Below the pieces are notes generated by a model. That model worked only from the letters and a program-made list of their open reading frames with translations, was not told the origin of the DNA and ran no database searches. From UHGV virus genome UHGV-1346634: DNA of 12,591 nucleotides; one strand, given 5' to 3'. The position numbers were made by a program, and so were the translations under genes. The stretch comes from a virus. This document shows positions 2,123 to 10,758 of this stretch, in pieces; position 1 is the stretch's first letter; the number at the start of each line of letters is the position of its first letter.

Positions 2123-4102
2123 ATGACATTTAAACACTACGATGTGGTCAGGGCGGCGTCGCCGTCAGACCTTGCGGAGCGACTGACTCAAAAACTGAAG
2201 GAGGGGTGGCAGCCATTTGGCAGTCCTGTCGCCATCACGCCTTATACCCTGATGCAGGCCATTGCGGCGGAAGGTGATGTCACCACACCTGTGGTGGTGA
2301 AGCCGTCGGATGGAGAAGGCACAGTTATCAGCACCACCAGCGAACCGGAGTATTACTTTGTTGTTGTTCTGGCGGGGCAGTCAAACTCAATGTCTTTTGG
2401 TGAAGGGCTGCCGCTGCCGGAGACATATGACCGTCCGGACCCGCGTATTAAACAGCTGGCGCGTCGCAGTACGGTGACGCCGGGTGGTGCCGCCTGTAAA
2501 TATAACGACATCATTCCGGCAGACCACTGTCTGCATGATGTGCAGGATATGAGTAACCTGAATCATCCTCATGCAGACCTGAGTAAGGGACAGTACGGTT
2601 GTGTGGGGCATGCTCTGCATGTTGCCAAAAAGCTGCTGCCGTTTATGCCTGCGAATGCGGGTATCCTTCTTGTTCCATGTGGCCGTGGCGATTCGGGATT
2701 TACTGCGGGGGCCGAGGGGGCGTTTAACGAAGCGTCGGGAGCGACCGCAGGCTCGTCCCTGTGGGGGGCGGATAAACCGCTGTATCATGACCTGGTCAGC
2801 AGAACCCGTGCGGCCCTGAAGAAAAATCCGAAGAACGTGCTGTTATCAGTGATCTGGATGCAGGGAGAAAAAGATGTCAGTTCGGGGAGACATGCAGAAC
2901 ACAATGCGCTTTTCCTTGCCATGGTAAATCAGTTCCGTACGGAACTGGCAGATGTGGCAGAGCAGTGTACTGGCGGGACAACGGCCAGCGTCCCGTGGAT
3001 TTGCGGTGATACCACGTACTACTGGAAGGAAAGGTATGCAGCGCCGTATGAGGCGGTTTACGGTGGGTATAAAGGAAAAGCTGCGCAGAATATTCACTTT
3101 GTGCCGTTGATGACGGATGAGCATGGTGTGAATGTGCCGACAAACGAGCCGTCAGAAGATCCGGACATTATCCCGGCGGGATACTATGGCGCTGCGTCAC
3201 GCACTGCCAGTAACTGGACGGCAGCCGATCGTAAAACGCACTTCAGTTCATGGGCGCGAAGAGGCCTTGTTTCAGACCGCCTGGCAGGTGCCATTTTGCA
3301 GTACGCCGGGCGGACATTATCGTTCCTTACCGGGCAGAGCGCACCGCAGTCGGGTGGTACAACGCCTGTCAGTCCGGGGACACCGGATGTTGAGAAACCG
3401 CAGGATGGCGGTGTTGCTGGTACTGGTCATGATGAGGCCGTGAGCAGTACCAGGACGGTGGCTGAATATGATGCGAACAGTGGAAATGGTGCATTGACAG
3501 AGCAGCAGTGGGGCGCTTCCGGCGGCAAAGGCACTGTGACTGATGACGGTGGACGGAAAGCGCTGCGACTGGAAAAACAGCCCGGTAAACTGACGTCCTG
3601 GAAAATGTTCCGTACTATTGCAGTGGAGGAGGCAAAAAATCTTCTCAGCAAGGGGGGGGAAATTGCCGTACGGTTCAAAATTCCGGATGGAAGCGAGCTG
3701 GTGAACGGACAGTTTGTCTTTGGTATCTACTGGCCGGTGTCGCAGTGGGCGTCAGGCGCGACAGCAAACAGTATGCTGGCATCATTCTTCCTTCAGACGG
3801 ATACATCAAATCTTAATCTGATGCACCAGAAGGGCTCCTCGAATGCACAACTGGGTACATTTGGTACGTTTGACCATAACTGGCATACGGTTGTTTTCCG
3901 CTTTGCGGGAAATAACAGCGAAAGAGTTGTTCCGGTGATTGATGGTGCAGAGCAGACGGCATTTGACCTTGTGATGTGGACAAATGATGGCTTTACAGCA
4001 GATACGCTGACGCTGACAGATATCACGGGGGCAAAAGCGACGTATCCGGTACTGCTTGATACGGTCACAGTCAAAGTTAACGAAAGCCGGGCATCATCAT
4101 AA
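2123..4102 (+). CDS. nanS-p: Prophage sialate 9-O-acetylesterase (NanS-p type)
   Basis: 659-aa ORF with RBS GGGAGG 4 nt before the ATG. SGNH-esterase motif LAGQSN (in VVVLAGQSNSM) and a DUF1737-like N-terminus. Size and position match the large esterase ORF downstream of stx in 933W-type phages (from memory). Confidence 0.8.
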   Translation: MTFKHYDVVRAASPSDLAERLTQKLKEGWQPFGSPVAITPYTLMQAIAAEGDVTTPVVVKPSDGEGTVISTTSEPEYYFVVVLAGQSNSMSFGEGLPLPETYDRPDPRIKQLARRSTVTPGGAACKYNDIIPADHCLHDVQDMSNLNHPHADLSKGQYGCVGHALHVAKKLLPFMPANAGILLVPCGRGDSGFTAGAEGAFNEASGATAGSSLWGADKPLYHDLVSRTRAALKKNPKNVLLSVIWMQGEKDVSSGRHAEHNALFLAMVNQFRTELADVAEQCTGGTTASVPWICGDTTYYWKERYAAPYEAVYGGYKGKAAQNIHFVPLMTDEHGVNVPTNEPSEDPDIIPAGYYGAASRTASNWTAADRKTHFSSWARRGLVSDRLAGAILQYAGRTLSFLTGQSAPQSGGTTPVSPGTPDVEKPQDGGVAGTGHDEAVSSTRTVAEYDANSGNGALTEQQWGASGGKGTVTDDGGRKALRLEKQPGKLTSWKMFRTIAVEEAKNLLSKGGEIAVRFKIPDGSELVNGQFVFGIYWPVSQWASGATANSMLASFFLQTDTSNLNLMHQKGSSNAQLGTFGTFDHNWHTVVFRFAGNNSERVVPVIDGAEQTAFDLVMWTNDGFTADTLTLTDITGAKATYPVLLDTVTVKVNESRASS

Positions 4103-6855: not shown

Positions 6856-7551
6856 ATGAAAGAGATGATTTCTGTCGATCATGAAATATCCATGAGTAGT
6901 CTGGATTTTCTGAATAACATTATTAACCCCATCCGGGTTGAGGCAGGGAAACCACCTCATGAACCGCGTAAGTTCCTTGCAAAAATTGAGGACGAACTTG
7001 AGCTTGAGGTAACCTGGAAAAAATTCCGGTTAAACAATAACCAGACAAGAACGGCATACTATGATCTGGATTTTGACCAGATGATGCTCGTTGGCATGAG
7101 AGAGTCAAAGGCCGTTCGTCGTTCTGTGCTGGCAAGGCTCAAAGCGATGCATGGTATTCAGATCCCCCAGACTTTACCTGAGGCGTTGCGATTTGCGGCA
7201 AAACTGGCAGAACAGAAAGCAGTGCTGGAAAATCAACTGGCAATAGCAGCGCCGAAGGCTGAATTTGTTGATAACTATGTTGAAGCATCTGGTCTGATGG
7301 GATTCCGGGAAGTTGCTAAGTTACTCGGTATCAAAGAAACCGATTTCCGGCTGTTTTTGTTGGAGAACGGAATAATGTATCGCCTCGCTGGAAAAATGAC
7401 GCCTTACTCGCATCACCTGGATGTGGGGCGGTTTAGCGTGAAAACGGGCGAGGCGGGCAATGGTCATGCTTTTACGCAGGTTAAATTCACCCCAAAAGGT
7501 GTTCAGTGGATTGCTGGTCTGCTTGCTGCATGGAGAGCTACCGCAGCATGA
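6856..7551 (+). CDS. ant: Phage antirepressor (KilAC-domain, Ant-like)
   Basis: 231 aa with RBS AAGGAA 6 nt before the ATG. C-terminal half has the KilAC/ANT-type pattern. An ant-like gene between R and Rz is a feature of 933W-type phages (from memory). Confidence 0.7.
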   Translation: MKEMISVDHEISMSSLDFLNNIINPIRVEAGKPPHEPRKFLAKIEDELELEVTWKKFRLNNNQTRTAYYDLDFDQMMLVGMRESKAVRRSVLARLKAMHGIQIPQTLPEALRFAAKLAEQKAVLENQLAIAAPKAEFVDNYVEASGLMGFREVAKLLGIKETDFRLFLLENGIMYRLAGKMTPYSHHLDVGRFSVKTGEAGNGHAFTQVKFTPKGVQWIAGLLAAWRATAA

Positions 7552-8495: not shown

Positions 8496-8802
8496 GCGAC
8501 CTTATTATCCATGCGCGGTATTGTCGCCGTATTCCTGCATTAACAGAGACCGCAGCCCGACAGGGAGACTCCTCTGCGCGAGTGTGCGGGGATAATCAAA
8601 AACGATACACACCGGGGTTTACCGCGTTAACGGAGCGCGGAGTTGTCCCCTCATGGTCGCTGCTCCGGTGCGATGGTGGAAGAAACCGGACGATGTGTTA
8701 CCTCGCAAGCTCTGTTATGTCATGTGTCTGATTTGTGATTTAAGTCGGATAATTGTCGTTGCCATTAAGCAGAGGATTGATGACCGACAGGGTGGCATTG
8801 TT

Positions 8803-8819
8803 AGAATAAGACTTATTCT
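8803..8819. promoter_or_regulatory. Perfect inverted repeat AGAATAAG-A-CTTATTCT upstream of the lipoprotein gene; possible operator overlapping a -10-like TAGAAT
   Basis: 8-bp arms with a 1-nt spacer, 15 nt before the first ATG of the lipoprotein. A possible -35 TTGATG at 8777-8782 lies 19 nt upstream of TAGAAT (8802-8807), which is a long spacer. Confidence 0.3.
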
Positions 8820-8833
8820 TATCTGTGCCGGGA

Positions 8834-9166
8834 ATGAAAATGAAAAGAAATCTTCCGTTAATTATTTTGTTGTCTTCTCTGGTTATGGGCTGTACGCAAC
8901 ATAAAACAGATATGCCCCGACAGTTGGTTAAGGCATTACCACAATATCCGGCCTATGCAGTGGCAAATTATATAAAGGGACGGGTTGATGTGAAGTTTGA
9001 TATTGGTGCTGATGGTACTGTCACCCGAATTGAGTTTATCCGTTCAGAGCCGCACCATCTGTTTGATGAGCAGGTTGTAAAGGCGATGGCAAAATGGCGA
9101 TTTGAGAAGGACAGGCCGCGTAAAGGCGTGAAGAAAACGTTTATCTTTAGTCCTTCTGCACCCTGA
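8834..9166 (+). CDS. Lipoprotein consisting of a TonB C-terminal-like domain
   Basis: Signal peptide with lipobox (MKMKRNLPLIILLSSLVMGC). The mature part aligns by eye to the E. coli TonB C-terminal domain: PQYPAYAVANYIKGRVDVKFDIGADGTVTRIEFIRSEP..FDEQVVKAMAKWRFE against TonB [53 protein letters not shown]. Alternative starts at 8825 (GTG) and 8840 (ATG). Confidence 0.7.
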   Translation: MKMKRNLPLIILLSSLVMGCTQHKTDMPRQLVKALPQYPAYAVANYIKGRVDVKFDIGADGTVTRIEFIRSEPHHLFDEQVVKAMAKWRFEKDRPRKGVKKTFIFSPSAP

Positions 9167-9297
9167 TTATTTCATCAGAAATTAATTATCACTCTGTTGT
9201 TATTCTGTACATCCCGGCTGGGTAAGTCTTGTTCCACCGGGTATGAAGATGAAATATTGTTGGAGGACAGTGGGTACCTGCTCCTGTAACCGAACGT

Positions 9298-9498
9298 TCA
9301 TTTCTCGTTATTTGTCATGCTGGCCGGACGCAGATGCGTTGCATCTGTTGCCAGCCTTCTCCTGCAGGCTTCAATAACCCACGCTGAAAAGTTACCGGAC
9401 CCTTTATGCTCAAGGGCTATGTTGATTTGTTCAATTATGTGATTGGGGAAACGGATATTGCGGGTTGTGGTTCTGCGGGTCCGGTTTTTCGATGACAT
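9298..9498 (-). CDS. Small DNA-binding protein, ribbon-helix-helix (Arc-like); possibly YlcI/YnfO family
   Basis: 66 aa on the minus strand with RBS AAGGA about 8 nt before the ATG. The segment NIRFPNHIIEQINIALEHKGSGNFSAWVIEACRRRL resembles the Arc beta-strand plus helices pattern. Position upstream of the terminase genes matches where ylcI/ynfO sit in K-12 cryptic prophages (from memory). Confidence 0.5.
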   Translation of the reverse strand: MSSKNRTRRTTTRNIRFPNHIIEQINIALEHKGSGNFSAWVIEACRRRLATDATHLRPASMTNNEK

Positions 9499-9518
9499 AT
9501 TTATTTCCTTTACTGATT

Positions 9519-9528
9519 GTCATATGAC
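9519..9528. promoter_or_regulatory. 10-bp palindrome GTCATATGAC in the 41-bp divergent region between the RHH gene and the HNH gene
   Basis: Perfect palindrome midway between the two divergent start codons; candidate operator. Confidence 0.3.
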
Positions 9529-9539
9529 GGGGATTTTAC

Positions 9540-9905
9540 ATGGCTGAGCTTCGTACACTCCAGAGCAGAATCAAAACACTGAATACCCGACGGGTGAATA
9601 TTCTGAAGGGCGAACAGCGTCGTGTCAGTGGCAGTGCACGTGTTTCCCTCAAGCGTCATATCTGGCTCAGGGACGCCGGGCAGTGCTGTCTCTGTGGTCG
9701 TGTGGTTGACCTCTGTGACAGTGAACTTGATCACCGAATTGCACTTCAGTTCGGTGGTGGTAATGAGGAGACGAATCTCTGGACGCTCTGTACCGAATGC
9801 CATCGACAAAAGTCTGCTCGTGAAGCGGCGGGTGGTATGCCGGACCCGACGCTGCCGGAGGTGTCCGGAGGTAGTGGCAGAGCGGACGACATCATCGGAC
9901 TGTAA
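9540..9905 (+). CDS. HNH homing-type endonuclease associated with the terminase
   Basis: 121 aa with Cys-x2-Cys ... H-x ... Cys-x2-C-H arrangement (CCLCGR ... DHRIALQFGG ... NLWTLCTECHRQK), located immediately upstream of cos/TerS as in HK97-like packaging modules. Confidence 0.8.
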   Translation: MAELRTLQSRIKTLNTRRVNILKGEQRRVSGSARVSLKRHIWLRDAGQCCLCGRVVDLCDSELDHRIALQFGGGNEETNLWTLCTECHRQKSAREAAGGMPDPTLPEVSGGSGRADDIIGL

Positions 9906-9996
9906 CCCGACCCGGGGGGGGATCATCCGGCGTAAAAAACGATCGCTCCGGACACCGCGCCCCCTCTCACGCAGAGAAAAAATTCCCGTTTCAGGG

Positions 9997-10120
9997 CAGT
10001 TAACATGTTAACTGGCTGCCCGGGCATTTTTGCGGTTTTTATCTTTATTATTCAGTTTGTTGTGCGGAAAAAATGTTAACTGGCTTTTTCAGCAAATGTT
10101 AACCAGGCAGCAGTTAACAT
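9997..10120. promoter_or_regulatory. cos-like packaging recognition region: five ATGTTAAC half-sites in both orientations
   Basis: 18-bp perfect palindrome CAGTTAACATGTTAACTG (9997-10014); ATGTTAAC again at 10073-10080 and 10096-10103; inverted copy GTTAACAT at 10113-10120; an AT-rich spacer between them. Lies between HNH and TerS. Confidence 0.45.
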
Positions 10121-10194
10121 TTACGGCATGAGACGCCGGGAAAAATGGGCTGAACCATACCCGGCTGAGTGCGTTCTGGACCCGGGAGGAGGCT

Positions 10195-10758
10195 GTGCTG
10201 ACAACGCAAAAACGAAAATTTGCGCTGGCGCTCATGTCCGGGAAAAACAAAACAGCGTCAGCCATTGCGGCAGGTTATTCGGCGAAGACGGCCAGAGTTA
10301 AAGGCTCGCAACTGGCAAAAGATCCGGAAGTGCTCGCGTTTATAGCCCGTAAGCAGTGCGAGACGGTAGAGGTGGATGAGGTTCCTGTTTACCGGCAGAA
10401 AAAATCAGAGCAGGAGGATAAACCCCGTCGCCGTGAGGCGGCTGCAATACCACAGCCGGACGAAACAAATCCGGAGATGCCACCGCCCGTGGTGATATCT
10501 CCTGGTATTGAGTATATGGAGGACGGTCTTCCCGATCCTGTGAAAGCGATGGGGCGTCTTCTGGTGGAGAACATTAATACCGACCCCAGGCTGGCGCTGG
10601 ATGCGGCTTATAAGCTGGCGCAGTTCACGCACCACAAAAAAGGGGATGCCGGTAAAAAATCGGCAAAAGGTGACGCGGCGAAAAAAGCGGCTAACCGTTT
10701 TGCGGTGCCACCACCACCCCGCCTGGTGGTGAATAATGATAATGAGGGCAACGGATGA
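10195..10758 (+). CDS. Terminase small subunit (P27-family type)
   Basis: 187 aa, GTG start after GGGAGGAGG. N-terminal pattern KRKFALALMSGKNKTASAIAAGYSAKTARVKGSQL is typical of this TerS family. Stop overlaps the TerL start (ATGA). Confidence 0.75.
   Translation: MLTTQKRKFALALMSGKNKTASAIAAGYSAKTARVKGSQLAKDPEVLAFIARKQCETVEVDEVPVYRQKKSEQEDKPRRREAAAIPQPDETNPEMPPPVVISPGIEYMEDGLPDPVKAMGRLLVENINTDPRLALDAAYKLAQFTHHKKGDAGKKSAKGDAAKKAANRFAVPPPPRLVVNNDNEGNG

Follow-up and report, generated by a model that had tools for sequence, protein, structure and literature searches.

The window, by which we mean the whole stretch of 12,591 nucleotides analysed here, is the late region of a Stx-type lambdoid Escherichia coli prophage; over positions 8700-10300 it shares 96-97% identity with Stx1a-converting phages and phage JLK-2012 (genus Marienburgvirus). 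Its gene order begins with a methyltransferase gene, two copies of the STnc100 sRNA and the genes for an esterase, a holin, an endolysin, a KilAC antirepressor and Rz/Rz1, and ends with a TonB_C-domain lipoprotein gene, the minus-strand gene ylcI and the HNH, TerS and TerL genes. We located ylcI at 9298-9498, where an ATG opens a minus-strand reading frame of 66 amino acids that appears in the list of open reading frames and has Pfam, NCBIfam and PHROG matches. Residues 1-50 of the protein make up a conserved core with a predicted ribbon-helix-helix (RHH) DNA-binding domain, and residues 51-66 a variable tail. On its downstream side, ylcI converges with a plus-strand gene (8840-9166) for a lipoprotein with a TonB C-terminal domain (Pfam TonB_C, 1.3e-14; 'TonB family protein' in relatives), which appears to be an accessory ('moron') gene, and 131 bp separate the two stop codons. 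On the other side, it diverges from an HNH endonuclease gene (9540-9905, plus strand; Pfam HNH, 7.5e-7; phrog_589; annotated as such in relatives) at the head of a packaging module arranged HNH - cos - TerS - TerL. The spacer between the two start codons (9499-9539) measures 41 bp, a length kept in 79 of 79 related loci. The reading frame and its protein, the divergence across this spacer and the convergence with the TonB-like gene had all been described in the original prediction and are present in the sequence. The prediction had also named ylcI as the sole minus-strand gene of the window, and this holds: the ten longest of the other minus-strand reading frames have no Pfam match, and in a 95.5%-identical prophage PGAP annotates YlcI as the only minus-strand coding sequence of the stretch from esterase to capsid.

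The surroundings of ylcI contain several further elements. Both STnc100 copies (Rfam RF02076) are full-length, score 140 and 167 bits, and lie 5' of the esterase gene at 1212-1417 and 1695-1905; the 3' part of a tRNA at 1-52 is likewise 5' of this gene. Upstream of the TonB-like gene, an 8+1+8 palindrome at 8803-8819 (AGAATAAG-A-CTTATTCT) overlaps the -10 element (TAGAAT) of a promoter-like site and is kept in 41 of 47 related loci. We also considered a Fur box at this promoter and rejected it, the best match to the consensus being a weak 13/19. The HNH gene encodes 121 amino acids in the window, in BP-4795 and in E. coli SW070917 and is annotated with 176 amino acids in JLK-2012; in the window, a run of eight G (9914-9921) follows just past its stop codon. 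Finally, the gap between the HNH and TerS genes holds, at 9996-10122, five copies in both orientations of the repeat (C)AGTTAACAT(G/T)TT / AAATGTTAACTG. These probably represent cos together with repeats to which TerS binds. In the deposited genome of phage Lys8385Vzw, the end corresponds to about position 9965 of the window.

The 66-residue reading frame is a genuine gene, and one that is already known: it is the YlcI/YnfO (DUF3950) gene of a lambdoid prophage, a member of a catalogued family. The protein scores above the curated cut-offs of both family models, Pfam PF13132 (DUF3950; 69 bits against a cut-off of 25, 3e-19) and NCBIfam NF041551 (YlcI_YnfO_N; 35.2 against a cut-off of 30, 9e-9), and it matches phrog_949 at 8e-33. 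Its conserved core includes the residues I15, R16, I25, F37, W40, V41 and C45, which are invariant in alignments that extend to homologs of 33% identity; the C-terminal tails are highly variable among family members. Proteins 100% identical to the one encoded here occur on many IMG/VR prophage contigs, and RefSeq names close relatives 'YlcI/YnfO family protein'. Under this family name, identical proteins had been annotated before in many E. coli prophages, and the gene itself is ordinary. Selection on ylcI is strong and purifying, as the first 50 codons compared with those of the lambda homolog give a pS of 0.67, a pN of 0.05 and a pN/pS of 0.08. The family is small, with 99 representatives at E <= 0.001 in a search of 1.84 billion cluster representatives, and many of these 99 look like error-laden reads of lambda DNA. 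Our literature search found no functional study of YlcI, YnfO or DUF3950, and the y-ome list gives no known function for any member of the YlcI/YnfO family (PMC11551758).

In every annotated example (JLK-2012, BP-4795, lambda, PhiR42_1, E. coli SW070917 and the K-12 prophages DLP12 and Qin), ylcI is the last gene before cos and the terminase genes and is antisense to them, and the YlcI match lies on the minus strand in all of the lambdoid phage records listed. The window copy has the same placement, between the lysis/accessory-gene region and cos/terminase and antisense to the late genes. Lambda carries a homolog of 64 amino acids (NC_001416.1, complement(48109..48303)) that is 86% identical to the window protein over 52 residues and is separated by 199 bp from the right cos end; NC_001416 has no feature at this position, and several lambda-like records do annotate the gene. 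In K-12, ylcI of DLP12 adjoins nohD and ynfO of Qin adjoins nohA. A protein encoded so constantly beside cos could be a packaging accessory factor that acts there together with the small terminase. A few homologs from phage satellites, to which we return below, point in the same direction: P0188, P0215, P0216 and P0220 (127-129 amino acids; for instance at L006 4714-5103 and L007 5001-5384) consist of DUF3950 fused to a Terminase_2 N-terminal domain, which in P0188 is 62% identical to residues 2-51 of the window TerS. We nonetheless hold a packaging function to be very unlikely. YlcI cores that are 86% identical, with the same predicted DNA-reading residues, stand beside unrelated systems (Nu1/A in lambda, HNH and Terminase_2 here), so that YlcI does not co-vary with cos. 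Moreover, ylcI runs antisense to the late operon and would be expected to fall silent at the very time of packaging, and most satellite homologs are devoid of a TerS-like domain.

The K-12 proteins YlcI (DLP12) and YnfO (Qin) belong to the same family and share with the window protein the core IRFPN..IEQINIAL..GSGNFSAWVIEACRRRL as well as the placement of their genes as the final ones ahead of cos and a small-terminase gene, antisense to the late genes. The window differs from them in the C-terminal tail of the protein, in the HNH gene that stands between ylcI and cos, and in the TonB-like gene that replaces ybcW, ybcV and bor. Within about 50 bp downstream of ynfO, Qin and PhiR42_1 have a DUF1398 gene (ydfO/ybcV) in the same orientation; in lambda and DLP12, the strand that carries ylcI has ybcV and bor farther along. 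Alternatively, then, YlcI may be the regulator or antitoxin-like first member of a leftward operon (ylcI - DUF1398 ybcV/ydfO - bor), of which the window, its partners lost, would retain a functionless remnant. The 233-residue protein P0219 (L091 4757-5458), a read-through fusion of YnfO and the downstream DUF1398 protein YdfO that represents 761 member sequences, supports ynfO-ydfO as one transcription unit in Qin-type prophages. RHH antitoxins have partner-binding tails, and the variable tails of YlcI resemble these. However, the window has no co-oriented reading frame downstream of its solitary ylcI, where the 131 bp lead directly to the convergent gene, and many HNH-type phages keep solitary ylcI intact and under purifying selection; PADLOC models match neither YlcI nor the DUF1398 protein. 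This reading as a whole, with its lost operon, seems improbable to us. As to a type II RHH antitoxin of the ParD, CopG or HicB-like kind, we found in the window no adjacent co-transcribed toxin gene, and PADLOC returned no match.

YlcI probably has the RHH fold. The lines of evidence for this are individually weak and none is decisive, but they are concordant. The AF2 monomer (mean pLDDT 74) is non-helical/extended at residues 14-18 and has helices at 19-32 and 37-55; this is the RHH order of an extended N-terminal strand and two helices within about 45 residues, in a monomer that cannot show the paired strand. Foldseek against the PDB listed 37 matches, about 28 of which are RHH or RHH-like (ParD, NikR, TCP domain, YiiF, VapB, pCXC100 ParB and Arc), all with E > 1 and a probability of at most 0.38, and neither the PDB nor BFVD yielded a match with E <= 1. 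When the YlcI profile was compared by hhalign with an Arc/Mnt profile, whose Arc and Mnt sequences had been checked against the PDB, N14-I-R-F-P18 fell on N11-L-R-W-P15 of Arc (P 0.0014, probability 17%). The HicB-like phrog_497 is matched by 9 of 18 family members (best E 8e-5), three 'Arc-like repressor' PHROGs are matched by single members (E 7e-4 to 0.03), and so is the NCBIfam model of the SAG1252 family conjugative relaxosome accessory protein. Pfam Arc (PF03869) matches none of the 18 members at E <= 10, the RHH families of Pfam gave no match, and PDB sequence searches with the protein and two family profiles returned no relevant one. The original prediction of an RHH-like, Arc-like protein is supported, if weakly: topology, alignment register and PHROG matches agree with it, while the Arc model does not match and no single test is significant.

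The resemblance to Arc and Mnt of P22 can be carried a little further. These repressors are similar to YlcI in size and in the predicted beta-alpha-alpha order, and the strand motif N-x-R-(F/W)-P aligns in register. P22 Mnt, moreover, is a small repressor made in the lysogen from a gene that lies among late genes. They differ in that YlcI does not match PF03869 even at E <= 10 and reaches an hhalign probability of only 17%, that neither an adjacent ant-type target promoter nor a 21-bp operator was found at ylcI, and that ylcI also occurs in phages without ant. By the same analogy we considered a link between ylcI and the ant gene of the window (6856-7551), and rejected it as no shared operator or promoter was found.

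The 41-bp divergent spacer contains a Shine-Dalgarno-like AAGGAAA 5' of the ylcI ATG (9504-9510, minus strand), the perfect 10-bp palindrome GTCATATGAC (9519-9528) and a Shine-Dalgarno-like GGGGA 5' of the HNH ATG (9529-9533, plus strand). The palindrome is there as the original prediction reported, and its proposed meaning was that YlcI binds it to autoregulate and/or to gate transcription into the HNH and terminase genes. Its perfection and its place between two start codons speak for such an operator, and a palindrome of this length arises in the shuffled spacer with a probability of only 0.03. RHH repressors, furthermore, commonly autoregulate. Conservation tells against it. Of 79 IMG/VR loci that share the 41-bp spacer and encode a YlcI protein with 95% identity or more, only 5 keep GTCATATGAC; 62 carry GTCATATGGC and the remainder the more degenerate GTCATATAAC, TCCATATAGC, GTCATAAGGC or GCCATATAGC, with 3 of 5 palindrome pairs kept in some. 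JLK-2012 and BP-4795 differ from the window in and beside the palindrome. In the lambda, DLP12 and Qin orthologs, the predicted DNA-reading residues of the beta-strand are identical (TTTRNIRFPN), but the upstream sequence is unrelated and has no palindrome. Perfect 10-bp palindromes are also no rarity in the window, with 9 observed and about 12 expected. Since it is a minority allele, occurs at chance frequency and is absent from these orthologs, the palindrome is not credible as an operator and is probably a product of chance. The Shine-Dalgarno sequences likewise argue against the proposal, for they fill the spacer and leave no promoter there to occlude, and the HNH gene is reached by late read-through, with no plus-strand promoter-like site upstream. 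All in all, we judge control through this palindrome to be highly doubtful.

Other sequences around the spacer were considered as well. A long inverted repeat (9452-9476 / 9565-9589) was rejected, as RNA folding of 9440-9600 on both strands (z +0.95 and -0.25) was no more stable than shuffled controls. A single GTG-N6-CAC / AAACACGT-like sequence at 9628-9645 was set aside, being present in one copy and not conserved in JLK-2012. The 11-mer GTATTCAGTGT occurs 5' of the window ylcI at -88 and, in inverted form, 5' of lambda-type ylcI at -24, where about 0.03 matches are expected by chance; we keep it as a weak lead only, because BP-4795 has two mismatches to it. No conserved operator was found near the window ylcI.

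With both Shine-Dalgarno sequences inside its 41 bp, the spacer cannot hold promoters, and either promoter would consequently lie within the neighbouring coding sequence. Promoter scans found no plus-strand promoter-like site between 8808 and 10250 and no convincing promoter for ylcI. The sole candidate for ylcI is a weak sigma-70-like site inside the HNH coding region (9600-9628, minus strand; CTGACA-17-CAGAAT, 9/12), which is not significant given that four sites were found in the region and 2.0 were expected. Because ylcI stands alone and antisense to the late operon, it must have a promoter of its own. In K-12, the convergent pair ybcW-ylcI was detected as an 'excludon' in at least 50% of RNA-seq samples (PMC12288877). 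The ylcI gene of a cryptic K-12 prophage is thus transcribed outside lytic growth, evidence that comes from DLP12, a prophage other than that of the window.

Taken together, these observations suggest how the window YlcI might work. Its N-terminal 50 residues most likely fold as an RHH domain and would dimerise, with T12, N14 and R16 of the beta-strand, together with a basic arm at the N-terminus, predicted to read the DNA. The gene stands alone, antisense to the Q-dependent late operon and last before the HNH-cos-terminase module, and we infer that it is expressed in the lysogen, where late transcription is off; after induction, colliding late transcription would silence it. YlcI would then most likely be a small sequence-specific repressor, whose operator is probably another than GTCATATGAC. 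On balance, we lean towards this explanation as a whole, with YlcI of the window as a lysogen-expressed RHH repressor, though only somewhat. The repressor activity is suggested by analogy with satellite homologs that stand beside co-varying operator-like arrays.

These distant homologs have 33-50% identity with the window protein and begin with MATGxKNNKSxxKGIRFPHELIE... at their N-terminus. The small islands that encode them also carry integrase, AlpA-like and primase genes and are phage satellites of the type represented by PICIs or P4. We found them in Serratia, Xenorhabdus, Morganella, Proteus, Pectobacterium, Pantoea, Klebsiella, Enterobacter, Gilliamella, Orbaceae and Pasteurellaceae, in part through a genome scan with an alignment of the satellite subgroup. 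Orientation was scored in loci with a nearby match to a reference integrase, primase or helicase, and in most of these the homolog is divergent from the upstream primase operon (about 30 loci) and convergent on the downstream integrase. One member of this group has been annotated differently: in Pasteurella 'phage' Pmp7 (OR544138, L005), a 224-residue minus-strand 'transcriptional repressor' (2583-3257) overlaps a YlcI-like reading frame of 59 residues on the plus strand (3001-3180); the longer gene was probably called on the wrong strand.

The 130 bp upstream of the satellite homolog have a fixed layout, seen in about 30 satellite loci (for example L092 5870-6000), with three 12-bp GTG-N6-CAC boxes. 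The first two are 23 bp apart from centre to centre, the second abuts GTCAA (TTGAC on the other strand), and the third comes after a TGTATAGT element, some 30 nt upstream of the ATG. In L092, a promoter scan detected a leftward promoter-like site (TTGACG-18-TATGGT) overlapped by two boxes; the same scan of L007 gave no promoter-like site at the boxes. The central six bases of the boxes agree with each other far better within loci (identity 4.64/6) than between loci (2.67/6; permutation P < 1e-4), and the third box co-varies as well (permutation P < 5e-4). Moreover, the type of box tracks residues 11-14 of the homolog: (T/S/F)TKG pairs with GTG[CT]A[CT]A[AT]ACAC, the TTKG-type box being GTGCACAAACAC, (Y/F)KG pairs with GTGTTTAAACAC, and KKH pairs with GTGTG.ACCCAC. 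From sequence, this covariation suggests that boxes and homolog form a cognate repressor/operator module for the YlcI family; the boxes could instead be bound by another co-inherited protein. Upstream of the window ylcI and of lambda ylcI we found no such three-box array, and the divergent module of the satellite type (three 12-bp boxes, 23 bp spacing, about -30) does not occur at the window gene.

Published work describes the global repressor of Gram-negative PICIs as unclear and AlpA as an activator (PMC6092414). Like Stl/Rpr of Gram-positive PICIs, the satellite YlcI homologs sit between the int side and a divergent replication operon, a likeness that we regard as one of function, and their operator-like boxes likewise overlap a promoter-like site in the locus scanned. 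In contrast, the fold and size of YlcI are unrelated to those of Stl/Rpr, and the repressor role of satellite YlcI is putative only. The fusions with a TerS-like domain recall another PICI protein, Rpp, which consists of a winged-HTH domain and a coiled coil (PMC6739421). Both the fusions and Rpp of E. coli PICIs carry a copy of a helper-type TerS N-terminal domain (that of lambda TerS in Rpp), and the P0188-type proteins may be functional analogues of Rpp that mimic the TerS DNA-binding domain. The window protein, unlike Rpp, has no TerS-like domain, and homology between YlcI and Rpp was rejected since Rpp is a winged-HTH and not an RHH protein (PMC6739421).

That the family is common to helper-type lambdoid phages and to int-alpA-primase satellites, where it stands at a regulatory junction, raises the thought that the phage protein has a part in phage-satellite conflict, in which it would cross-talk with the operators of YlcI-type modules and so affect satellites or other prophages in trans. 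The fusions, which mimic the TerS DNA-binding domain of the phage type represented by the window, would suit such a conflict. The predicted reading residues differ, however (TTTRN-IRFPN in lambdoid proteins, xxKG-IRFPH in satellite ones), the genome scan recovered no E. coli satellite with a YlcI-type module, and the argument is purely inferential; we give this action in trans very little credence. A broader proposal would join the lysogen-expressed repressor of lambdoid phages to the satellites. YlcI/DUF3950 would be a distinct clade of RHH repressors common to lambdoid phages, lambda included, and Gram-negative satellites. In the satellites it would be the missing master repressor, a counterpart of Stl, and would regulate its own expression through three co-varying GTG-N6-CAC operators flanking the promoter of the replication operon; the window copy would be expressed in the lysogen and shut off by antisense late transcription, with spurious packaging-gene expression, or satellites and other prophages in trans, as its targets. 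We offer it as a speculation that is, in its entirety, unlikely.

A very conserved small gene thus sits at the lysis-packaging junction of lambdoid phages, including a lambda copy that NC_001416 leaves unannotated. If YlcI is indeed an RHH repressor, the role of a lysogen-expressed regulator placed antisense in the late operon becomes testable, and the homologs with their co-varying boxes would make it possible to test what represses Gram-negative PICI-like satellites, a point that published work calls unclear (PMC6092414). In our opinion, the operator architecture of the satellites and the unannotated lambda copy, which came as by-products, are more interesting than the window locus itself. 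Exact lambda sequence, with an identical lambda YlcI, is present in many assemblies of unrelated taxa (for instance Kitasatospora, Cohnella, Pedobacter, Shewanella and Pseudomonas), on contigs of about 3.5 kb or about 48.4 kb, and is very likely contamination from a sequencing control. Error-laden versions of this lambda sequence inflate the apparent diversity of the YlcI protein family.
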